Both the position numbers and the translations under genes were made by a program. DNA of 30,245 nt from a bacterium. GTDB taxonomy: Bacteria > Zhuqueibacterota > Zhuqueibacteria > Oceanimicrobiales > Oceanimicrobiaceae. Position 1 is the first letter of the stretch; each line of letters begins with the position of its first letter. A model generated the notes under the pieces. It was given only the letters and a program-made list of their open reading frames with translations, did no database searches and was not told the DNA's origin. Location: contig JBHHXT010000042.1 in the NCBI GenBank assembly GCA_046757165.1, positions 1 through 30,245 on the forward strand, given 5' to 3'. This document shows positions 5,937 to 28,993 of the stretch, piece after piece.

Positions 5937-6050
5937 CCAACAACAGCAAGCAAGTCATCCAGGCTGAAGGGCGTGGTCAGGGTGGCAAAGGCGCCTGATT
6001 TGATCGCCATCTGCGCGGATTCAGGGGTTCCGTAGGCCGTCATCACGATC
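5937..6050 (-). repeat. Degenerate direct-repeat copy of the 3' part of the receiver-domain gene (other copy 6871-6983)
   Basis: Manual alignment over about 114 bp gives roughly 8 substitutions and one 1-bp insertion relative to 6871-6983. Confidence 0.9.
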
Positions 6051-6451
6051 CCTGTGTGAATGATTTGGCTGGCAGAAGCTGTCTGAAGATAGTTCGGATT
6101 CTTCGGATTGTCTTTACAGCATACTTTGCTTCTTCAAGCGTCGATTCTTCGCCAGGATACCGGAGTTGCACTGAATACGGGTTGAGCAATTCGAATAGCT
6201 CGCGGTGAACTTCCAACCCGGGTGCCGACTCCAGAGAGAGGTCCAATAACAGCATCAAGTCATGCGATTTCGGAAAACGGACACGATGGAATATGAGATG
6301 GGCTTTGAGATATTTCTCAGCGGCCTGCTGGCAATGGAAGCAAACCAGGTCAGGGAGAGGTTCATTCTTGCGTCGTGAGAGCGCGATGGCTCCTTAAAAA
6401 ATCAGCTTCGCCCTTGCGCACCCATTCTGTCGCCTCATCAACGGCGCTCAT
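6043..6451 (-). pseudogene. HEPN-domain protein of an MNT-HEPN pair, interrupted by a +1 frameshift
   Basis: ATG at 6451 overlaps the end of the MNT gene and reads MSAVDEATEWVRKGEADF. After one extra base near 6393-6401 the next frame reads GAIALSRRKNEPLPDLVCFHCQQAAEKYLKA..FPKSHDL..LNPYSVQLRYPG, typical HEPN motifs. The span is 409 bp (3n+1). Confidence 0.8.
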
Positions 6452-6752
6452 AGGCGACCACGCCCTTGCTCAGGATTTCAGTCAGAAAGGGCTCTACCCT
6501 GCTCGCCGCGCGCTGTATTTCGGCCGGGGTTCGCACGACGATATCTATAGGAGCCGGCCTTGGGGCTAGCAAGCGGGAAATGTGACGAATTCTTTCCGCC
6601 CCCACGAGGGGGGTCTCCCAGACCACGAGCAGGTCGATATCGCTGTCCTCATTGGCATCCCCATAGGCGTGTGACCCGAAGAGGATTACTTTTTCGGGAG
6701 ACACCCCGGCCACGATCTTGTCAACGATATCCTCGAGTAGTCGCTTTTCCAT
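6438..6752 (-). CDS. Minimal nucleotidyltransferase (MNT) domain protein
   Basis: ILFGSHAYG..EDSDIDLLVV (GS..DxD pol-beta motif), PIDIVV, 104 aa, overlapping the HEPN gene. Confidence 0.9.
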   Translation of the reverse strand: MEKRLLEDIVDKIVAGVSPEKVILFGSHAYGDANEDSDIDLLVVWETPLVGAERIRHISRLLAPRPAPIDIVVRTPAEIQRAASRVEPFLTEILSKGVVAYERR

Positions 6753-6847: not shown

Positions 6848-7207
6848 TCAGGCTGACCCATGCCCTTTTTCCAACAACAGCAGCAATTCATCCATGCTGA
6901 AGGGCTTGGTCAGGTAGGCATAGGCGCCTGATTTGATCGCCATCTGTGCGGATTCAGTGGTTCCGTAGGCCGTCATCACGATCACGATGGCCTCCGGTTG
7001 AAGCTTCTTGATTCGTTGCAACAAGGTGATGCCATCCATGCCGGGCATTTTCAGGTCGGTCAGGACGACATCGAACGGCTTCTTATCCAGCAGTTCCAGG
7101 GCCGCAAAAGGGGAGTCCACCGCTGTCGATTCATAGCCAGCATCTTGTAAATCATCTTGCAGTGAAATCCGCTGGATTTCTTCATCCTCAACAATTAGAA
7201 TTCGCAT
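6848..7207 (-). CDS. Stand-alone response-regulator receiver (REC) protein, close paralog of the REC domain at 14286-15689
   Basis: MRILIVEDE, phosphoacceptor in TDLKMPGMDG, MTAYG, YLTKPF. ATG 7207 gives 119 aa and aligns with the NtrC paralog from residue 1. Confidence 0.9.
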   Translation of the reverse strand: MRILIVEDEEIQRISLQDDLQDAGYESTAVDSPFAALELLDKKPFDVVLTDLKMPGMDGITLLQRIKKLQPEAIVIVMTAYGTTESAQMAIKSGAYAYLTKPFSMDELLLLLEKGHGSA

Positions 7208-7374
7208 GTTGGGCTGCTTCCTGTTCCCTCTCGTCACACGTCGAGGGGTACAGAAGGCTTGCATGATTTGGCGTAAACGCAAACTGATTGGCATCGAAGG
7301 AACAAGTCAACGCGTTCAGGTGTTGAGAAGCTTGTACACCGACCCGCGGTTAGGACAGCTCAGTTTGGGAGAAA

Positions 7375-7440: not shown

Positions 7441-10400
7441 CTACGTAGCAATCAACTTCACCTGCGTGTCGTAGAAGGATGACGACCCGCCGATTATGTC
7501 TTCCAGACAAACATTCTTCATCACCGGGTCCACTGCCATGACGGCATTGGGGCAGAGGCCGCTTTTCCGGCTCTTGTCGCCCGGGATTTTCTGATTGTCG
7601 ATGATGACATCGTTGGCGCCATAGGCCCAGTGGCCAAAATGCCAGGAAATCGCAATGACGCCCGGGCGCATGCCTTCGATCACTTTGAGCCTGCCTTCCA
7701 CCGGAATCACGTCACCATTCTTGAGATCCCAGATACCTTCCTGGTTCGTCGCCGAGACGACCCGCACTTTATCGCCGTCTTTCAGGCCGAGCTGCCAGGC
7801 TGTGGCAGAGTTGATGTGGATCAGGTTCTCCGGTAAGATTGCGGCCAACCAGTAGTCAGTCGGTAGTGTGCGTGACTGGCCGCCGGTAATCTCCTTATAA
7901 GTAATCAGGTGCAACGGATAGTGGCCTTTGTCGAGCGGACGGTCATCAAACCCTTTGACCGGCTCTGCCAGGCCGATGCCGGAAAAACGCTTGCCGGTGT
8001 AGGGGTGCCGCGTCAGAGCGACGTCCTCCACATAAATGCTGAACATTTTCTTGAAAGGGTGCGGCTGCTTGTCGCCGCTGTTGCGGTACTTGTCGAAGTC
8101 TTCAAAGCGGCCGCCGCGGTTCAGGACATAGACCACCTTTTTCCACCAATGTTTGCCGTTTGCGTCAATCGCGGCGCGCTTGAGCCTGTTCGGGTCCAGC
8201 ACTGCCGGCGACAGGTGCTTGCGCGCATCCATGAAGACCTTTATTTCGTTTGCATCTGCGTCCGGGACAGCCTGGCCGGGTTTGTCGCCGGCCGCAATAT
8301 TGGCAAACATTTTCACGTAGTAATCTTCCGGTCGGGTGAAGTCCATGCCCGGGCCAAAGCCATCCTTGCCGTGGCCCGGCAATTTCAATCTTTCCGCAAC
8401 GGCCAACATGATCGCTTCCATACTGACCGGCATTTCTTCGCCATAAACGGTCACCTTCTCGACCAGCGGTTCTACCGTAGGTTGGCGAACCTTGGACTGC
8501 AGGACCGGGCAGGCGGGCGTCGTGTGCGGCGTGCCCCAGCGCTCCCAGACGGCCGTATCCGGAAAGATATAATCGGCATACATGGAAGTTTCGCCGATCA
8601 CGATATCGCAGGCAAAGTAGAGCGGCACCTTGTCGAAATCCAGCAGGGTCTTGATCACGCGGTCGCCTGCAGGCGTGGATAACACAGGCGTACCTTTGTG
8701 CGTGAAAAGCGCTTTGATCGGGTAGGGGTAGCCATCCTCTGCTGAAGGCAGGATCTCCTGGTAAATCTCGTTGGAGTGCGGAAACCAGGGTCGTTTTGCC
8801 GGATAACCGTGCTCGCGAAACAAAGTGCTTTCCTCATATTTTGCTTTTTCACGGGTGATCTTGTAGCCGCAGGCGGTCAATTTGCCCGGATGCAGGCTCT
8901 TTTTCAAATTGAACGGCTGGCCTTTTTTGCTGCCGTCTTCATGCCAATGGCTGCCGCCCTTGGAAAGACCGCCTTTCCAGTCCGGGTTGCCGACCAGCAG
9001 GTTGAGCGTGATGATGGCCTGCGCGTTGTAGTAGCCATTGGTATGCTGCACTGGCCCGCGGTAGAGCTCGGCCACCGATTTCTTGCCGTGCCTGGCAAAT
9101 TCAACCGTCAGCTCAACGATGTCTTCTACCTCAAGGCCGCAAAGCTCGGCCCACTCGTCCATGGACTTGTTCCTGGCATAATCTGTCAGAATTCGGAATG
9201 CTGATTTCACCTGAACTTTGCCGACCTTACCGCTATAAAAGAGGTCGCCTTCGATAGCTTTCTTCTCGTCGTAGGGGTTGAAGGCCAGGGGACTGCCGTT
9301 GCGCATGACAACAAACTCATCCTTGCCGCCACGGCCAATGTCGGCAGCGCGCAGCAATCCGGCCGGGCCATCTTTTTCAATTTTGACCAACCAGGTGGCG
9401 TTTGACCATGTCGTTTCACTGTCCTGCCTGGCGGCGGCTTTGTTGGCATTGGTCAAATAGGTTTTATCATACTTGTCATTCTCCAACATCCAGCGGATCA
9501 TCGCATTCGCGAGTGCGGCGTCTGTGCCCGGTTTGAGTGGCAGCCACTTCCACGCCTTGGCAGCGGTCTTTGAGAGTCGCGGATCGACTACAGCAATCTT
9601 CAGTCGGCCCGTGACCAGATTGTTGGTGACCAAGTTACTCAGATATGGCGGCCCAAAACTGGCATCAAACGGGCTGGTGCCGAAGAAGACAACAAACTCG
9701 CTGTTGTAGAGATCCGGTTTCATGTGGTGCTTCCCTTTGCGCCACTTGCCGTCCTTAAATTGTTCGGTCATCTTTTCATAAGCAATGTGGTGCGACTGCT
9801 CGCAAATCGAGGTGTGCAAATGATAGTTGGTGCTGCCAAAACCATTGTACAACCACCTCTTGCTGAACTCTTTGCGGCCGTGTTCAACGCGGCCCCCCAG
9901 AAAAACAAACTGATTGTTCACCGGTCCAAAATCAGGATGGTTCGGGTCGATCAGTGTACTGAGGTGGTCGCGATATTTTGCCTTGAACGCCTTCACGGTC
10001 ATCTTGCCCTTGCCGACATTTTTTGCGTCGACGGCCATCGCTTTTGACACTTTAGCGTCGCGCAGTCTAAACAAATCTTGCAGGCCCGGCACCACGCGGT
10101 TTTCTTCGCCCGGCACATTGGCAAAGAGCTTGCCGCCAGTGACGATTTCCAAAATCGCCTGTTCAAAGGGCACCACCTGCCATTTGTTCTGGCCGCGTTT
10201 GCCGGCACGCTTCAGCACTTTGGTTATGCGGTACGGATCATAAAGACTCTGGATGCCTGCCTGTCCCTTCGGACAAATCCCGCCATCGACCTTTGCCGCT
10301 GATTTGATGTTGGTGGCATAGGGCAGAGCAGGATTCAGCGTCTGCATGCCGTAAGGATTGCCGTCCACTTTTGCCGCCACGCCATCCAGGACCTTAACCT

Positions 10401-10620
10401 TGATGGGACAGGCTGTGTGACACTGCAAGCAGACCGAGTAGATGACGTTTTCAGCGTTCCCCAGCGGGTATTCCCCCGCGGCTGCGTACGCCTCCGATAC
10501 TTTACCACAACTCGAAAGCGTCTGTGCGACTATGCCGGTACCGCCCAGCAACGCCGTCGTTTTGAAAAACTCACGGCGGCTCAAGCCCCTATTTTCAGGT
10601 TGGTTATTGCCATTTTTCAT
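7441..10620 (-). CDS. ttrA: Mo/W-bisPGD oxidoreductase catalytic subunit, tetrathionate/selenate reductase (TtrA/SrdA)-like
   Basis: Tat motif SRREFFK; FS0 cluster motif CLQCHTAC..CPKG; putative Cys metal ligand in HTSICEQSHH; LKPGTDAALA; IGETSMYADYIFPD; C-terminal molydopterin-binding domain (HFGHW); B-C-A gene order. Substrate cannot be determined from sequence by eye. Confidence 0.8.
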   Translation of the reverse strand: MKNGNNQPENRGLSRREFFKTTALLGGTGIVAQTLSSCGKVSEAYAAAGEYPLGNAENVIYSVCLQCHTACPIKVKVLDGVAAKVDGNPYGMQTLNPALPYATNIKSAAKVDGGICPKGQAGIQSLYDPYRITKVLKRAGKRGQNKWQVVPFEQAILEIVTGGKLFANVPGEENRVVPGLQDLFRLRDAKVSKAMAVDAKNVGKGKMTVKAFKAKYRDHLSTLIDPNHPDFGPVNNQFVFLGGRVEHGRKEFSKRWLYNGFGSTNYHLHTSICEQSHHIAYEKMTEQFKDGKWRKGKHHMKPDLYNSEFVVFFGTSPFDASFGPPYLSNLVTNNLVTGRLKIAVVDPRLSKTAAKAWKWLPLKPGTDAALANAMIRWMLENDKYDKTYLTNANKAAARQDSETTWSNATWLVKIEKDGPAGLLRAADIGRGGKDEFVVMRNGSPLAFNPYDEKKAIEGDLFYSGKVGKVQVKSAFRILTDYARNKSMDEWAELCGLEVEDIVELTVEFARHGKKSVAELYRGPVQHTNGYYNAQAIITLNLLVGNPDWKGGLSKGGSHWHEDGSKKGQPFNLKKSLHPGKLTACGYKITREKAKYEESTLFREHGYPAKRPWFPHSNEIYQEILPSAEDGYPYPIKALFTHKGTPVLSTPAGDRVIKTLLDFDKVPLYFACDIVIGETSMYADYIFPDTAVWERWGTPHTTPACPVLQSKVRQPTVEPLVEKVTVYGEEMPVSMEAIMLAVAERLKLPGHGKDGFGPGMDFTRPEDYYVKMFANIAAGDKPGQAVPDADANEIKVFMDARKHLSPAVLDPNRLKRAAIDANGKHWWKKVVYVLNRGGRFEDFDKYRNSGDKQPHPFKKMFSIYVEDVALTRHPYTGKRFSGIGLAEPVKGFDDRPLDKGHYPLHLITYKEITGGQSRTLPTDYWLAAILPENLIHINSATAWQLGLKDGDKVRVVSATNQEGIWDLKNGDVIPVEGRLKVIEGMRPGVIAISWHFGHWAYGANDVIIDNQKIPGDKSRKSGLCPNAVMAVDPVMKNVCLEDIIGGSSSFYDTQVKLIAT

Positions 10621-11909
10621 TCGTAGGCCTCCTTCAATTTGTCGGTCGTTTGGGATGGGACTACCCTGACCGCAGCGGTCTCAGTATCGATGATTGGCAA
10701 AATCGATTTGCCGGCCATGAAGATGAACGCCGGTACTCCGATCGTGAACAAAAAAAGAAACCATTCCATCACGCTGGGAAAGTAGTCGAATGTCAGGCCC
10801 GGCCCGGTAAAGGCATGCTTCAACCCTTCGAGCTCGGGGACGGCCAACGCAGGAATAACGATGTTCAGTCGTACCGAGATGAAGCTGAAGGCGATCAGCG
10901 CTCCGGCGGTGCCTACTGCTGTGACTGACCGTGACCGTGATAGCAGCAACAAGCCGGGAATGACGACGCCCGTGCCAACATGCACGAACCAAAACACCCA
11001 CCAGAAATTTCCGAACAAAACGAGTTTCAAACTTTCGCTTTCGGATGGCACGGAGCTCCAGAGACCGATGGAGAGTTCTGCCCATTCCAGCAGAACATCG
11101 GTGGCCAACAGAACGAGAACGATGCGGCCCAGCAGTCTGACGATCTTTCGATTTTCCTCCGTATTGCCGTTTGCACCCCACACCGCGACAACGAAAGCGA
11201 GAAGTGCGGCACCAGAAGTCAATGCGCCGGCAAGGAAGATAATCGGGGTCAGGCCGGAATTCCAGTAAGGCCGAGCGCCGACAGCGCCGAAGATCGCCCC
11301 GACCGAGCCGTGAAACGCGACGGCCAGCGGAATGCCGATGCTGCCAAGAATCTTCAGGACGTTCAAGTCTTTTTCGTGAGAATATTCCTGGCGACGGTTC
11401 GGGTCGAAGCCGATGAGCTTGCAAATAAAAGTATTGGGCGTTTTGGTGTCGGCCTTCTGTACCAGGTCGGCCCGCAAGGCAAATCTGAACTCAATCAGGA
11501 GTAGAATGAAGTAGGAAGCGTACAACCAGGCCATCCAGCCCATGACGGAAGTAAAGTTTGTCTGTGTGAGCATCCGCCAGACGCGGCTCATGTGACCCAG
11601 GTCCAGCCAGATAGCCAACATCGCGCCAACCAGCGTGGCCAGGGCGGTCAGCAGCGCCAGCCGGCCGATCTTTTCGAATGCCTTGATCCGAAACACGTAC
11701 ACCAGCGCGGACATCAGGAAGGCGCCGGCAGAGAGCCCGATCAAGTAAATGTATCCGGCAACCCACAATCCCCACGGCACGTAGGAGCCATAGTTTGCGT
11801 TGATGTGGCCATTTGTCAGGCGGTCAAAAAGTCCAACCAGCCCGACCATCAATGCTGCGATCGTGAGTCCCCAGAAAAATCTGTTCCGGGAATTCTCTTG
11901 CGTTTTCAT
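10617..11909 (-). CDS. ttrC: NrfD/PsrC/TtrC-family quinol-interacting membrane anchor
   Basis: PWGLWVAGYIYLIGLSAGAF, DLGH, S.M.W, HGSVGAIF..RPYWN; about 10 TM segments; ATGA overlap with the catalytic subunit gene. Confidence 0.85.
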   Translation of the reverse strand: MKTQENSRNRFFWGLTIAALMVGLVGLFDRLTNGHINANYGSYVPWGLWVAGYIYLIGLSAGAFLMSALVYVFRIKAFEKIGRLALLTALATLVGAMLAIWLDLGHMSRVWRMLTQTNFTSVMGWMAWLYASYFILLLIEFRFALRADLVQKADTKTPNTFICKLIGFDPNRRQEYSHEKDLNVLKILGSIGIPLAVAFHGSVGAIFGAVGARPYWNSGLTPIIFLAGALTSGAALLAFVVAVWGANGNTEENRKIVRLLGRIVLVLLATDVLLEWAELSIGLWSSVPSESESLKLVLFGNFWWVFWFVHVGTGVVIPGLLLLSRSRSVTAVGTAGALIAFSFISVRLNIVIPALAVPELEGLKHAFTGPGLTFDYFPSVMEWFLFLFTIGVPAFIFMAGKSILPIIDTETAAVRVVPSQTTDKLKEAYE

Positions 11910-11921
11910 TTCATTCTCCTC

Positions 11922-12887
11922 TCATAGCAGATAGTGAACTTTTGGCTTGGTGCCCATTTCTTCTTTCAAATGCGTCACGTTGGGCTTGCCCATCAGCTCT
12001 GCCACCAAACTCCGGGGATCGTTGGCATCGCCAAAGAAGGTCGCGCGTCCGATACAAGTCACAACGCATTCTGGCAGCATCCCTTTCTCGATTCTGTGCA
12101 CGCAGAAGTGGCACTTGCGGGCGTTGCCAATGGGTGATTTGTTGTCGACGCGCGGTCTTGCTTGACCGTAGTCATAAGTCGGGCTTTCTTCGTAGACACG
12201 CGCATTGTCGCCGCCGACATAGGCAAACGCAGCTTTCGGCGCATTTTCGGTATAAAAGCGGCCGGTGTCAAACGTGCGCGCACTGTAGGGACAGGCTGTG
12301 ATGCAGTAGCGACAGCCGATGCACTGATCGTAGTCGATGTGGACGATGCCATCCGGACGCTTCCAGGTTGCACTCACGGGGCAGACGGGTACGCACGGCG
12401 GCTCTTCACACTGCATGCAGGGCCGTGGTGTGAACCGGTGTGTCACGTTGGGAAATGTGCCGATCTCTTCTTCCATCACCGGCCGGTAGACCACGCCGGG
12501 CGGCAGCTTGTTCTCTGCCACGCATGAGACGGTACAGCTATGGCAGCCCGTACACTTGCGCAGATCAATGACCATCGACCATTTGCGCTTCTCTATCGGT
12601 TTTGCCAGCGCCCGCTTCAGGTCGCGGATCATGCGGATAATCGGGTCCTCGTCTGGCATGGGCTCTGGCAGGTCGGGAAAATCAATCGGCGCTACCTCCG
12701 GTTCTGCCGTCTCTGCCAAAGCCGAAAATTTTTTGTCCACGACCATCGGCAGCAACATGGAAGCAAATACGCCCGTGCCGAATTTTTTCAAAAAACCGCG
12801 ACGGTCCTCTTCCGCCTCGCCTCGCTCAGCGCTCACAGGCTCCGTCGAATCTTCTATCTGCAAAAGCTTTGTTTTTTCGTCAGTCAT
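11922..12887 (-). CDS. ttrB: Four-cluster [4Fe-4S] electron-transfer subunit (TtrB/NrfC/DmsB-like) with a Tat-like motif
   Basis: [37 protein letters not shown] and KCHFC..CVVTC; RRGFLK twin-arginine motif. Confidence 0.9.
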
Positions 12888-12978: not shown

Positions 12979-13995
12979 CTAAAACTTATAGTAAAATGAA
13001 AATCGCGGAATAATATCGCTGTCCGGACTTACGCCGGCGTCATTTTCGCTGTAGAAGACGGCTTCAATATTGGGCATCAAATGGATGTTTTTGGCGGGCT
13101 GGAAATCCAGGCCGCCGACAAAAAATGTCGACTTTGCGGACGCGTCAAATGGAATGTAAGATATCTTGGCGCCGGAGGGGTTCGGATCGAACATGCGGTC
13201 GATTCTCGCGAAGCCCCAGACTTTCTCCGATAGTTTGGCCACGGCGAACAGAGAGCCGACTTGCAGGGTCATGTCATCTGCGCCCGCTACCTGGCGATTC
13301 TGGTGCGCAAACTGAACGCCAACGCGGAACGTTTTTTTGTCATAGCCGGCAAATCCTTGCAGGGTGTAACGGTTGGTTTCGCCGGGGCGTTCTTCGAAGT
13401 CGACATAGCCTTCGATGATGAAGCCGGCTTCTGTCTTTGCGCTCACGCTGAACATCGCTTTCTTGCCCTCATTGTTCTCGGTGCCGTTGCTGGAGCCGTT
13501 ACCCAGGAGCAGGTGGTATTTGACGCGCTTGTTAGAATCAAGCGTGCCTTTCACGCCAATGCCGAAATCTCGCGATGACCCCAGTTTTTGCAAATCAAGC
13601 GCCGTCTTCTCAACCGACCGGTAACCCCAGAATTTCTCGACCAGGCCCCAGGTTGGGGTGCCGGAAATGCCCAGGTAGATACTGTGCTTGCCCTTTTTCC
13701 ACTTCAAGTAAGCATCTTTGACAACGGGAGTCATTTTGTCTTTGCCGGTGAAATTCCCCGCGCTGCTCATCTCGAGGCGAAGGCGCATCGAGAAGGCCTC
13801 ACTCAACCCTTTGTCGAATGCGAAGTAGATACGCCGCATCCAAAACCCATTTGCGCCTTCCAAATCCTCGTTGTGGTTAGCGGCCATGTAGTAGTAATCG
13901 CCAAACATGTAACCGCTGATTTTGCCGCTATCCTGGGCAAAAAGCGGAGCAGTCAATATCAGCATGGAAATGAGAATAAGGGCGTGCTTTTTCAT
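12979..13995 (-). CDS. Outer-membrane beta-barrel porin-like protein
   Basis: Signal peptide (..APLFA|QD), alternating amphipathic strands, FWMRRIY and VKDAYL motifs, C-terminal FSFYYKF; GGAGG RBS. Confidence 0.8.
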   Translation of the reverse strand: MKKHALILISMLILTAPLFAQDSGKISGYMFGDYYYMAANHNEDLEGANGFWMRRIYFAFDKGLSEAFSMRLRLEMSSAGNFTGKDKMTPVVKDAYLKWKKGKHSIYLGISGTPTWGLVEKFWGYRSVEKTALDLQKLGSSRDFGIGVKGTLDSNKRVKYHLLLGNGSSNGTENNEGKKAMFSVSAKTEAGFIIEGYVDFEERPGETNRYTLQGFAGYDKKTFRVGVQFAHQNRQVAGADDMTLQVGSLFAVAKLSEKVWGFARIDRMFDPNPSGAKISYIPFDASAKSTFFVGGLDFQPAKNIHLMPNIEAVFYSENDAGVSPDSDIIPRFSFYYKF

Positions 13996-14077: not shown

Positions 14078-14093
14078 ATCAAAGGCTGTACCA
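14078..14093 (-). promoter_or_regulatory. Sigma54-type -24/-12 promoter (variant -12) for the porin-ttrBCA-like operon
   Basis: Minus strand reads TGGTAC-AGCCT-TTGAT: exact spacing, but GA instead of GC at -12. About 80 bp upstream of the porin ATG and next to the sigma54 activator gene. Confidence 0.6.
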
Positions 14094-14285: not shown

Positions 14286-15689
14286 TCACGCCGGGATTGT
14301 TCCGCTCGCCCCGGGCTGGTCTTCCGCGGGGTTTTGATACTCGATACCATGTTTGTTGATTTTGCTTTTCAAGGTCGACGTGGGAATGCTGAGAAGTTCT
14401 GCTGCTTTGGCCTTGTTGCCGCCCGTCTTCGCCAGCGCCTGAGAAATAAGAGCTTTTTCAAGATCGGCGACAGTGGCTTCGAGCGCTAAAGGTTTGTCCA
14501 TCTCATTTGGGGCCGGCCTGACCCCGAACCTCCGCTCACGGATTTCACCGGGAAGGCAGTCCGGTACGATAGGGTTGCACCGGCAGGAGAGCATCAGCCG
14601 TTCAACCACGTTTTTGAATTCACGCACATTGCCTGGCCAGGAATAATCCATCAAATCCTGATAGACTCGTGGGTCGATTTCAGGGATTTCCCCTTGCCGA
14701 AATTCGCGGACAAAATGTGTGAAGAAAAGCTGAATATCTTCTTTGCGCTCTCTAAGGGGTGGCAGTTTGATAGGATAAATGTTCAAACGATAAAAAAGGT
14801 CTTCACGGAACCGGCCCTTGGCAACGAGCTCACGCAGATTGCTTTTGGTCGCCGCGATGACACGGACATCGATCTTGAAGGTTTCGGTGCCCCCCACCCG
14901 TTCAAACGTGCGTTCTTCTAAAACCCGTAGTAGTTTGACTTGTAATTCTATCGGGATATCGTCCACTTCGTCGAGGAAGATGCTGCCGCCGCTGGCGAGC
15001 TCAAACCGTCCCCTCTTTTGTTTTACGGCCCCGGTGAAGGCGCCGCGCTCGTGACCGAAGAGTTCGCTTTCCAAGATGTCCTTGGACAGCATGGCGCAGC
15101 TCACCTTGATGAACGGCTTGTCTTTACGTGGCGAGTTGTAATGAATGGCGTTGGCGACCATCTCCTTGCCTGTGCCGGTTTCCCCTTCGATGAGGACGGT
15201 CGCCTCAGTGGGGGCGACAATCTCGAGCTGCTTGTAGATTTCTCGCATGGCGTTGCTCTTGCCGATGAGTTGGCCAAATGAATATTGTCTCTCCAACTCT
15301 TCTTTGAGTCTAATATTCTCAGCGACCACCCGGCGATAATCTTTTACTCTTTCCAACAACAACAGCATCTCATCCATGCTGAAGGGTTTGGTGAAGTAGT
15401 CATACGCGCCAGACTTCATGGCTTGCACGGCTGTTTCTACGGTGGCGTAAGCGGTCATCATGATCACCGTGGTGTCCGGTTGAATTTCCCTTATTTTCTT
15501 CAGCAACGTGATGCCGTCGATACCGGGCATTTTCAAATCGGAAATGATAACATCGAATGATTCCTTTGCCATCAGGTTGAGCGCCGCCCGGGCGGATGCG
15601 GCCGCCGCGGTTTCATACCCGGCGTCTCGCAAATCGTCTTGCAACGAGACACGCTGGATTTCTTCGTCCTCTACAATCAGGATCTTCAT
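14286..15689 (-). CDS. NtrC/AtoC/ZraR-family sigma54-dependent response regulator (REC-AAA+-HTH)
   Basis: REC (SDLKMPG), Walker A GETGTGKE, ESELFGHERGAFTGA, Walker B FLDEVD, RFREDLFYRL, WPGNVRE, Fis-type HTH (GNKAKAAELL). ATG 15689 is preferred over 15785. Confidence 0.95.
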   Translation of the reverse strand: MKILIVEDEEIQRVSLQDDLRDAGYETAAAASARAALNLMAKESFDVIISDLKMPGIDGITLLKKIREIQPDTTVIMMTAYATVETAVQAMKSGAYDYFTKPFSMDEMLLLLERVKDYRRVVAENIRLKEELERQYSFGQLIGKSNAMREIYKQLEIVAPTEATVLIEGETGTGKEMVANAIHYNSPRKDKPFIKVSCAMLSKDILESELFGHERGAFTGAVKQKRGRFELASGGSIFLDEVDDIPIELQVKLLRVLEERTFERVGGTETFKIDVRVIAATKSNLRELVAKGRFREDLFYRLNIYPIKLPPLRERKEDIQLFFTHFVREFRQGEIPEIDPRVYQDLMDYSWPGNVREFKNVVERLMLSCRCNPIVPDCLPGEIRERRFGVRPAPNEMDKPLALEATVADLEKALISQALAKTGGNKAKAAELLSIPTSTLKSKINKHGIEYQNPAEDQPGASGTIPA

Positions 15690-15705: not shown

Positions 15706-17760
15706 TCAATGCCCGATCGCGTCTGGCCGCAGGAGTTTCTGAGCTCGAGCCAGCTCATCAGGTGTATTGACATTGAGAAAAGCATGCCTGGAATAGAACA
15801 CCAATCCCGGTTCCATGCGTACGATGCGCGTCCTCACCTTGTCATAGAATTGAGAGACTTTGTGTTCCCCCAGTTCAATCTGCGCCTTGATAACGGGAAG
15901 ACATTTCTTCTTATAGACCGCGCACAGGGGCTCGACGCCTGATTCGGACTCGAACGCGAGGACGTCATAGGGAGCACAATTCTCGCACAGGAAGCGGATG
16001 AGCTGCCGGGACAAGAATGGCAGGTCGCAGGCAACAACCAGACAGTGCTCCGTTTGTGAGCGCTGCAACGCGGTATAAATCCCTGCCAGTGGGCCGAAGT
16101 TTGCGACCGCATCCGGATACACTGGCAAATTGAGAAATCTGTACTCCTGCTGCTGGTTGCTGATAACCACGATCTGCTCGAACTGTTCCCTGAGGCTATC
16201 GACAACACGCGCGATCATGGGTTTGCCGTCAACGAACAGCAGCGCCTTGTTCTGCCCCATGCGAGACGATGTTCCACCCGCCAGAATCGCAGCGCTGACA
16301 TCTTGGCTGCTCATCCCCGAAAGCGATTTCGCGGAGGGGAACATGACACGAAATACCGTACCAGTGCTGCTGCTGGTGAAGCAAATCTGTCCTTTATGTT
16401 CATCGATGATTTCTTTCGTGACCGCAAGCCCCAGTCCGGTTCCCTTGCCGCTAGGCTTGGTCGTAACAAAAGGGTCGAAGATAGAATGCTTGATTTCGAG
16501 AGGAATGCCCTTTCCAGTATCCTTCACATCCACTAATACACCATTTTCGGTGGCCTCAGAAACAACGCTAATTTGACCGCCTTCGTCGGTCGCGTCGACC
16601 GCATTCAACAGCAGGTTGACAAACACCTGCTCGAGATGTTGGGCATCTCCCAGGATCGTTGGTAAGTCTTTTGAGAGCGACAGGTCTAACCGCACGCGCT
16701 GTTTCTTGAGTCGGAGTTCCACCAGGTGGCAGGAGGCGGTAATGATATCATTCACCGCAATCGGTTGAAACATGATCTCTTTTTTGCGGGAGAAATTCAA
16801 CAAATCCCGGATGATATTCTCGATGCGAAGCAACGCGCTATCCATCAGTTTGGCATATTTCTTTGTCTGGGCGGCATCCCTTGGACTGGCGATAATCCGA
16901 CGCAGGCAATTTCGAATGCCGGCAAGAGGATTGTTGATCTCGTGTGCCAGACCTGAAACCAGCGTGCCGATCGCAGCAAGTTTCTCCGTTTGGATGAGCG
17001 CCTTTTGTTGGTGATCCTGCTCCTCGGCGGCGGTTCTCAAGCGGCCGAGCATGTCTTCGAAACCACGCTCGAGTTCGCCGATCTCATCCCGGCGCTTCCC
17101 CGCGATGTTGGCCTCATAGGTCGGAACTTCGACTTTTGCCATCTCTGTCGCCAGCTTCTTGATGGGGCTGGCCAACGTGCGGGCAACCAAAGATGCAATC
17201 AGAACGCCCACAACAGCGAATGCAAGACTGACGATGAACATCCAGCGCTTGAACGCGTCAGCCCGGCCAAATTCTGACTGACGGCTGAACTGCATCAAAA
17301 GTGTACCGAGCCGCTTGCCGCTATTCTCGAGCGGATAAGCGATTTGAAAGACCGGGTCTTCCCTGTCCTGTACTATCTGTGGCTGAGCAAGAGCCATCCA
17401 CCGCTGCGCCGCCTGCGACTCTTTGTCCTGGATGTATTGCCGATGATCGTCGCTCGCCAGGACGCCACCGGACGCGTCAACAACCATAACGTGTGTGACC
17501 GCGGCCATGGAATTAGCCAGCAGATCCTGGATGTAGTTGTTCAAAAGTCCATCCTCCTCAATCAGGCCCCGCTCCTGATACAAAAGCGTATTAGTGAACG
17601 AAATGGCGGCGGACGCAGCCAGGACAAGGGCCCGCCTTTCGGCCTCGGAGAAAAGCTGATTGCGATAAACATCCACGATGAAAATGTTTGCGACAAAACT
17701 GCAGGCGGCTATGATCGCAGAGGCCAGGCCGATGAACTTCCTTTCCAGAGTCAAGCGCAT
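15706..17760 (-). CDS. Membrane sensor histidine kinase (2TM-HAMP-HisKA-HATPase) fused at its C-terminus to a full MobA-like molybdenum cofactor guanylyltransferase domain
   Basis: HAMP (PIKKL..RRDEIGEL), H-box LAHEINNPL, N-box QVFVNLLLNA, DTGKGI, FDPFVTTK, GTGLGL. From Met483: AAILAGGTSSRMGQNKALL, GPLAGI, VVACDLPFL, EPLCAVY and NVNTPDEL (MobA motifs). Confidence 0.9.
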   Translation of the reverse strand: MRLTLERKFIGLASAIIAACSFVANIFIVDVYRNQLFSEAERRALVLAASAAISFTNTLLYQERGLIEEDGLLNNYIQDLLANSMAAVTHVMVVDASGGVLASDDHRQYIQDKESQAAQRWMALAQPQIVQDREDPVFQIAYPLENSGKRLGTLLMQFSRQSEFGRADAFKRWMFIVSLAFAVVGVLIASLVARTLASPIKKLATEMAKVEVPTYEANIAGKRRDEIGELERGFEDMLGRLRTAAEEQDHQQKALIQTEKLAAIGTLVSGLAHEINNPLAGIRNCLRRIIASPRDAAQTKKYAKLMDSALLRIENIIRDLLNFSRKKEIMFQPIAVNDIITASCHLVELRLKKQRVRLDLSLSKDLPTILGDAQHLEQVFVNLLLNAVDATDEGGQISVVSEATENGVLVDVKDTGKGIPLEIKHSIFDPFVTTKPSGKGTGLGLAVTKEIIDEHKGQICFTSSSTGTVFRVMFPSAKSLSGMSSQDVSAAILAGGTSSRMGQNKALLFVDGKPMIARVVDSLREQFEQIVVISNQQQEYRFLNLPVYPDAVANFGPLAGIYTALQRSQTEHCLVVACDLPFLSRQLIRFLCENCAPYDVLAFESESGVEPLCAVYKKKCLPVIKAQIELGEHKVSQFYDKVRTRIVRMEPGLVFYSRHAFLNVNTPDELARAQKLLRPDAIGH

Positions 17761-18017
17761 GACATAAACTCACAGGGTTTGTTCCGAGGGTTCGCTTGTT
17801 GCAGCCCTCGTTGTATCGCTGTCGAGAACAGTAGATAATTAGAATATTTGACGAGAAAATCAAGAGGGAAGCAACACGCAGGAACGATCTTCGCGGATTT
17901 GGGCCTGGCGCTCCACCTTTGTGAGTCAAGTAGAAGATGTGATTGGCCGATAAGTCCTAGGATGAATTTCACCTCAAAGAGAGCATTCGTAAAACATTGA
18001 GCAAATGGTGTTCGGTC

Positions 18018-28382: not shown

Positions 28383-28769
28383 TTACCAGATAACGTTAAC
28401 TTGTCGATACCCTTGGACCTTTCTGTCTTTACTTACCAAGCTCACACCATGGTGTAGGCATGTGGCAACGATCATGCAATCAGCGGGATCGCCGGCGAAA
28501 TTGCCTGGTAGTCGCGTTGACGACACGATAATTTTGGGCGTGAGTTGCAGTAATCTCAACTTCGGGCGCGCCAGCGCTTGTTCAATCCAATCTTGAACAT
28601 CTATCATGAACCCGATTCGTTGTTTGGCAACGAGCATCGCCACTTCCCAGCAAGAGATGACGCTGACTCCGACAGAATCATCATGACTGATGATCTCGTG
28701 TGCTCTTGAAGATAACCTTTCGTCTTCGTTTACCCACCATATCCAGGCATGTGTGTCAAGCAAAATCAT
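28383..28769 (-). CDS. vapC: VapC-family PIN-domain toxin
   Basis: MILLDTHAWIWW, SVISCWEVAML, DPADCMIVAT, SKD; ATGA overlap with the antitoxin gene. Confidence 0.92.
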   Translation of the reverse strand: MILLDTHAWIWWVNEDERLSSRAHEIISHDDSVGVSVISCWEVAMLVAKQRIGFMIDVQDWIEQALARPKLRLLQLTPKIIVSSTRLPGNFAGDPADCMIVATCLHHGVSLVSKDRKVQGYRQVNVIW

Positions 28770-28993
28770 CGCTGAGCTTCCCATTCTACATTAATTGCAG
28801 AGACGATATCATCCTGAAAGATAATACAGCCCTTAAGCGGATTTTCTTCAGTCTCTCTCGAGTCGGAATAGGGAACGACACGAGCAACAGGTTTGCCATA
28901 CTTCGTCACAACTATCGATTGTTGAGTTCTTGCTACTTCGTCGAGCAAGGACAAGCAATGGGTCTTGAATTTTCCAGCAGGAATTTGTTTCAT
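28766..28993 (-). CDS. Phd/YefM-family antitoxin
   Basis: FKTHCLSLLDEV....IVVTKYGKPVARVVP; 75 aa; directly upstream of vapC. Confidence 0.92.
   Translation of the reverse strand: MKQIPAGKFKTHCLSLLDEVARTQQSIVVTKYGKPVARVVPYSDSRETEENPLKGCIIFQDDIVSAINVEWEAQR

Follow-up and report, generated by a model that had tools for sequence, protein, structure and literature searches.

Why should a sensor histidine kinase end in a complete molybdenum-cofactor enzyme? The question is raised by one gene in a 30,245-nt stretch of bacterial DNA (the window), whose product (P0001) joins a kinase to MobA, the last enzyme of molybdenum-cofactor synthesis, which forms MGD from Mo-MPT and GTP. An earlier note, made from the sequence alone, had described an uninterrupted 684-aa ORF with HAMP, HisKA and HATPase domains, a linker and MobA motifs. 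Translation and Pfam bear this out and place the frame on the minus strand, which the note had left unstated; the plus strand carries stops. Pfam locates HAMP at residues 191-243, HisKA at 265-327, HATPase_c at 371-476 and NTP_transf_3 (PF12804) at 490-640 (E 2.5e-39, 135 bits), with a weak sCache_3_2 match in the periplasmic part (33-153, E 8e-4). The linker PSAKSLSG, Met483 (16314) and the motifs LAGGTSSRMGQNK, GPLAGI, ACDLP and NVNTP all appear in the translation. The features of the locus are collected in Table 1. G000 denotes the window's own genome, and other G labels denote genomes of relatives.

Table 1. Features of the kinase-MobA locus, with positions in the window.
Feature	Position	Strand	Basis
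Sensor histidine kinase-MobA fusion, 684 aa (P0001)	15706..17760	-	Translation, Pfam, contig coverage
N-terminal sensor region: two predicted membrane helices flanking a periplasmic, weakly sCache-like domain	17191..17760	-	Hydrophobic stretches, sCache_3_2 (E 8e-4), model
HAMP, DHp (His273) and HATPase core with N, G1, F and G2 boxes	16333..17190	-	Pfam, alignment
Linker of ~12 aa including the non-conserved Met483 (16314)	16297..16332	-	Alignment
MobA domain, the genome's sole MobA-like sequence	15706..16296	-	Profile, sequence and fold comparison
Sigma-54 (AtoC/NtrC-type) response regulator; likely start ATG 15689 (ORF caller: 15785)	14286..15689	-	Pfam/NCBIfam
Tandem palindromes CGACGA-N4-TCG(A/T)CG, predicted activator binding sites	14229-14214 and 14207-14192	-	Repeated in relatives
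Predicted sigma-54 promoter TGGTAC-N5-TTGA	14079..14093	-	Similar site in relatives
Porin-like outer-membrane protein, no Pfam match; first gene of the predicted target operon	12979..13995	-	Comparison
FeS subunit, TtrB/DsrO-like	11922..12887	-	Pfam/NCBIfam
NrfD-type membrane anchor	10617..11909	-	Pfam
Twin-arginine bis-PGD catalytic subunit, TtrA/SrdA/alternative-arsenate-reductase-like	7441..10620	-	Best model TtrA, 489 bits
Stand-alone receiver domain resembling the activator's receiver	6848..7294	-	Pfam, comparison

The kinase-MobA fusion is real and, judging from the spread of its family, old. The junction region (16310-16345) is spanned by one contig in each of four sequencing runs (4/4), and the gene contains no indel, joint or other letter. 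All four runs come from one study and three are possibly the source of the window, so they do not count as independent support; this is given by 22 other full-length 90% clusters of the same architecture, which make 23 with P0001 and are 37-62% identical to it. An assembly artefact was rejected on these two grounds, and the checks of read support and domain architecture that the earlier note had proposed both favoured the fusion. The note had also suggested that Met483 might be an internal start or the mark of a recent fusion. A separate MobA made from Met483, or a fusion by recent loss of a stop codon, is highly improbable: an in-frame ATG does precede the domain in G000 and 4/14 genes have some ATG or TTG in the linker (at differing positions), but no Shine-Dalgarno-like motif lies before Met483, the linker lacks an in-frame ATG, GTG or TTG in 10/14 genes, and the identities within the family speak against recency. 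Met occupies this column in 1/19 rows, and this lack of conservation leaves both suggestions unsupported.

A search with residues 480-684 returned 49 matches, among which 18 other 90% clusters carry HATPase plus MobA; four extra fusions, retrieved when an unrelated MobA served as query, are members of this kinase-MobA family too. Among the matches listed, the fused members that have names carry the labels Calditrichaeota, candidate division KSB1 and (Neo)Marinimicrobia; the family is one of uncultured bacteria. One member (P0007) was auto-named kinase/MobA by JGI. The window's phylum (167 genomes) contains five full fusions and a truncated one (G159), and the phylum of G167 (401 sampled genomes) contains eight. 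HATPase and MobA occur together in 8 of the best 150 matches among 1.84 billion representatives. Other fusion partners of MobA are MobB, FdhD, MoeA, MoaC and ABC ATPases (the last in P0200, P0205 and P0210); in P0351 (1036 aa), MobA is fused to a molybdopterin oxidoreductase with FeS domains. No description of a kinase-MobA fusion was found in the open-access literature (subscription journals and supplements being outside its scope), in line with the earlier note, which knew of no characterised example; nothing was found there on KSB1 arsenate reductases either. The architecture is thus apparently undescribed: each half is known, but we found no description of a sensor kinase as the cell's sole cofactor-finishing enzyme. 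Such a mobA is hidden from annotation, as the fusions appear in databases under the names ‘HAMP domain’ or ‘NTP transferase domain’ protein.

The LAGG loop, Lys, GPLxG, Asp and NxNT of the fused domain align to E. coli MobA and are (nearly) invariant across 29 rows; we take these to be the MobA motifs, with the Asp as metal ligand, in respect of both their roles and the GTP/CTP distinction. Residues G495, G496, K505, G556-P557-L558, G560, D579, N663 and N665 are identical in 29/29 rows. Sequence comparison with known MobA structures (E. coli 1E5K/1FR9; 2E8B) gives E values of 6e-21 to 4e-24, and the model of the domain matches the E. coli MobA fold with a TM of 0.85-0.86. The dN/dS of the domain is 0.11-0.27 across six pairs, and that of the HATPase is similar. 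The domain scores below the NCBIfam equivalog cut-offs (TIGR02665, 138 vs 151.85 bits; NF001457, 150 vs 164) and just 58 bits on the MocA model; the TIGR02665 cut-off is reached in 0/61 genomes of the class (one unpublished genome, G158, included), stand-alone mobA genes among them. With their motifs intact, both halves of the protein look functional.

In G000 (99.98% complete by markers, 531 contigs, 6.1 Mb), the fused domain has 138 bits on TIGR02665 and the next match has 42. The second strong NTP_transf_3 gene of this genome (contig C43) is MocA-like (180 bits), lies in an xdhC/cox cluster and departs from the fused domain at the MobA motifs; it was rejected as a second MobA. The genome has moaA-, moaC- and moeA-like genes and 13 PF00384 loci, 12 besides the window's, of which 10 were scanned; they include NapA, two AioA-like and FdhF/YdeP-like proteins, and at least one looks NuoG-like. 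The AioA-family pair (L149:1138-3807 on C329 and L150:754-3234 on C162) has 464 and 1049 bits, respectively, on TIGR02693, and the weaker member possibly represents a divergent subfamily. Another locus (L144:1-2988; G000:C51:18614-22036, minus strand) encodes a 1140-aa molybdopterin oxidoreductase with a C-terminal NifS/IscS-like cysteine desulfurase.

The fused domain is the sole MobA-like match above 60 bits in 10/14 fused genomes, although ‘only mobA’ is firm just for G000 because most of the others are incomplete MAGs; a second mobA-like gene accompanies it in G155, G167, G366 and G448. mobA is single-copy in 40/41 class genomes having a match. The target operons of G364 and G338 extend into moaA, moaCB and moeA, and apart from the fused domain no mobA was found in these genomes. 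Taken together, the profile and genome comparisons make the MobA half likely to be the cell's ordinary and only guanylyltransferase for the bis-MGD cofactor. A signalling protein that carries the sole MobA likely doubles as the cofactor-finishing enzyme, a point that the earlier note had missed. In other bacteria, loss of mobA lowers all DMSO-reductase-family activities (PMC7759655).

The kinase half shows the H, N, G1, F and G2 boxes, the HAMP domain and the membrane helices expected of a class I sensor histidine kinase. His273 is invariant in the 26 covering rows of the 29-row alignment (26/26), and N382, N386 and D414 are kept in 29/29. The linker has a mean identity of 12%, compared to 51% for the MobA domain and 55% for the HATPase, and a narrow range of lengths (23-28 residues from G467 to L493 in 29/29 rows). 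AlphaFold predictions of HATPase plus MobA (18 sequences) gave well-folded domains (pLDDT 86) with no confident mutual orientation (pTM 0.57), which says nothing against contact. The kinase is predicted to phosphorylate the neighboring regulator, which adjoins it in all loci read.

In relatives, a PhnD/PtxB-like binding-protein gene (X) lies before the kinase (S), followed by the activator (R). X precedes S in 11/13 full-length fused genomes by sequence match, and G019 has a contig-cut ORF at this place. This gene order assigns the kinase to an X-S-R system as its S, with a periplasmic binding protein as X and a sigma-54 activator as R. The earlier note had missed this too, together with the loss of X here: no X orthologue was found in G000, and the gap ahead of the kinase spans 17761-17996 in the window and L156:2889-3556 in G013. 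The column equivalent to AioX Cys106 holds Gly in 14/14 aligned X proteins, which sets these X proteins outside the AioX subfamily, as PhnD/PtxB-like. In the G000 kinase, the periplasmic domain has diverged slightly more than would be expected from the cytoplasmic part.

As the earlier note had it, the kinase gene lies ahead of an activator and a bis-PGD reductase; the former is a sigma-54 regulator and the latter belongs to a porin/FeS/NrfD/TtrA-like operon. TtrA is the best model for the catalytic subunit, at 489 bits against an NCBIfam equivalog cut-off of 1750 (for the family that unites TtrA, SrdA and alternative arsenate reductases, see the definition in PMC10100899). The porin-like gene has a 69% paralogue (G000:C91:1391-2419) directly behind phoBR/pst-like genes (labels by eye). 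The tandem palindromes recur in G015, G022, G155, G167 and G013, and in the first four a sigma-54-like site lies ~90-125 nt behind them. The consensus of the sigma-54 -12 element is TTGC, from which the predicted promoter of the window deviates (TTGA). A matrix built from the palindromes of G015, G022, G155 and G167 (the G155 pair taken off-register) was used to scan the 6.1 Mb of G000; the window's pair was the best of 29 (40.4 vs 19.7 bits). This lead suggests that the predicted regulon consists of the porin-reductase operon alone, with the kinase-mobA gene itself outside it. Elsewhere in the window, the stand-alone receiver is ~60-70% identical to the receivers of relatives' activators and could be a phosphate sink or a duplication remnant; a minimal nucleotidyltransferase with a small downstream ORF (6043-6752, minus strand) and a PIN-domain gene (28383-28784, minus strand) likely belong to toxin-antitoxin-type pairs.

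The earlier note's link between a complete MobA fusion and bis-PGD operons extends to the family: all fused loci with downstream DNA (11/11) face a bis-PGD enzyme operon, six TtrA/SrdA-like, four PsrA/PhsA-like and one ArrA-like (the count excludes G019 and G266, whose contigs end too soon, and the relic in G159). Phosphate-type porins occur at fused loci, and Ppx, PiT and PhoU-like genes at distant unfused relatives, which suggests an oxyanion resembling phosphate, for instance arsenate or selenate, as the signal. Two distant unfused X-S-R systems (L187:4312-10692 in G126; L041 in G010) with related palindromes sit next to Ppx, TctCBA, PiT and PhoU-like genes, and possibly constitute a phosphate-type regulon outside PhoBR.

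We consider it probable, from these comparisons, that P0001 is bifunctional, its kinase half activating the porin-reductase operon and its MobA half serving as the cell's working MobA. The kinase would read a phosphate-like oxyanion via the PhnD/PtxB-type X (present in relatives, lost in G000) and phosphorylate the activator, which would bind the tandem palindromes and fire the sigma-54 promoter. The MobA domain would hang on the cytoplasmic C-terminus by a flexible linker, and contact with the kinase would be unnecessary. Among the observations that argue against this reading, input via X does not fit G000, which has none, and for 2/3 unfused close orthologues (in G003 and G007, which have shed the domain) the palindromes are followed by an octahaem cytochrome instead of a Mo enzyme, as expected if the domain senses cofactor. 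These cytochromes (L155:1-2241 in G007; L157:1587-4406 in G003) belong to no named family; one has a T9SS-type tail, and upstream of them lie, besides the palindrome, the sigma-54 site and a regulator that is duplicated and partly eroded.

Cofactor sensing would mean an active MobA domain with additional allosteric control over the kinase, which would restrict induction of the operon to times when Mo-MPT/GTP or bis-MGD can be had. We regard this as unlikely, though several observations agree with it. The domain is C-terminal, next to the HATPase, on a linker of tightly held length; the two halves co-diverge (Spearman 0.88, 24 rows); and the targets of all 11 fused loci are Mo enzymes, of three families, while the unfused kinases of G003 and G007 face a haem protein. 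The fused domain is also retained in the four genomes with a second mobA, which together with the held linker length hints at a role beyond enzyme supply. In E. coli, torCAD transcription depends on bis-MGD, for which the authors favour a riboswitch (PMC10845959). Against sensing, the linker is just 12% identical, MobA fuses readily to pathway neighbors, and the fused/unfused label shifts repeatedly on the kinase tree. G013 provides the closest comparison: its kinase is unfused (55% identical), with no X and no MobA remnant, but its porin-B-C-A operon (77-89% identical) has the same palindromes and promoter, and a stand-alone mobA lies elsewhere in the genome (which has 6% contamination; the kinase-operon link is an 18-nt contig overlap inside the regulator gene). 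The fused domain is thus dispensable for this circuit where another MobA exists; all three unfused close orthologues having a genome (3/3) are accompanied by a stand-alone mobA. TtrA-like operons also adjoin the distant unfused X-S-R kinases L192 and L193, the former alongside a separate mobA-mobB gene. The idea that unfused kinases always face non-Mo targets is refuted by G013 and L192/L193. It is unlikely that the kinase takes the occupancy of MobA by substrate or product as a second input, from the cytoplasm, so that the operon would fire only if oxyanion is present outside the cell and the cell is able to make cofactor; if sensing were true, cofactor status could be the main input in G000, which lost X.

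The trees bear on how the bifunctional protein arose. In the kinase tree (41 rows), all 22 fused kinases fall in one starred 29-row clade (96/91) with 7 unfused ones nested inside and unfused sister groups, and the label needs 6 changes (at least 4-6). Pure clades were rejected by AU tests both for the fused kinases (p 8e-65) and for the fused MobA domains (p 4e-5; 56 of 87 rows used for the MobA tree), so losses or repeated gains took place. On the trees, the simplest scenario is a single gain with several losses, and the fusion may instead have been gained repeatedly. A single event is the probable origin, in which S became joined to the mobA of an X-S-R/reductase/Moco cluster; plausibly, the L192 layout represents the state before fusion. 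The fused mobA would then have displaced the stand-alone gene in most carriers and been lost again from those with another mobA. In 10 stand-alone mobA genes checked, no remnant of a HATPase preceded mobA; either fission or repeated fusion could account for them. In G159 (L154:9105-10322), two short X fragments are joined to a kinase from mid-DHp on, without sensor or His box, and HATPase-MobA is retained as the only mobA (HATPase dN/dS 0.1 vs G155); this relic may be a misassembly.

The fusion could also have been selected for anchoring MobA to the inner membrane, the site at which cofactor is loaded into Tat-exported bis-PGD enzymes. The target enzymes have twin-arginine leaders, tatA-like ORFs occur in the operons of G015, G022 and G155 (by eye), and G000 has no match to MobB or to the TorD-like chaperone of G167. 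However, stand-alone soluble MobAs (53-61% identical) serve G004, G011, G012 and G014, and G159 retains the domain without membrane helices; we find such tethering improbable as the reason for the fusion.

If the MobA half of the bifunctional protein is the sole enzyme, every bis-MGD enzyme of the cell (nitrate reductase, arsenite-oxidase-like, formate-dehydrogenase-like) depends on one regulatory gene. The natural fused/unfused pair on the same operon (G000 vs G013), with its predicted enhancer-promoter, makes kinase-level coupling of molybdoenzyme expression to cofactor supply directly testable.

The closest known systems are AioXSR, ArxXSR and ArrXSR, arsenic-oxyanion regulatory modules with X-S-R beside a DMSO-reductase-family operon (PMC5908839). 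They share with the present system the X-S-R order beside a Mo-enzyme operon, a PhnD-like binding protein, and a sigma-54 activator of AtoC type together with its upstream sites and RpoN promoter (predicted here); as with ArrXSR, the fused relative in G364 faces an ArrA-like enzyme (1130 bits). In contrast, no MobA domain is reported on their kinases, the X of relatives has no equivalent of AioX Cys106, and G000 has no X at all. The catalytic core of P0001 has its best NCBIfam and PDB matches among ZraS/AtoS-type kinases, but the match is confined to the core and far below cut-offs, and the sensor and C-terminal extension differ. TtrSR-ttrBCA likewise places a bis-PGD reductase under two-component control, with the B-C-A order and TtrA as best model, but the A subunit here has 489 vs 1750 bits and the regulator is of the sigma-54 type. 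TorTSR-torCAD is a further case of two-component control of a bis-PGD reductase with expression dependent on bis-MGD, but here the regulator is a sigma-54 one, and the cofactor link proposed for torCAD is a riboswitch, not a kinase domain (PMC10845959). As in MobA-MobB (which occurs in Geobacter; PMC2700814), MoaC-MobA, MobA-FdhD and MobA-MoeA, MobA is a frequent fusion partner; unlike in these, its partner here is a membrane signalling protein rather than a Moco-pathway or transport protein.
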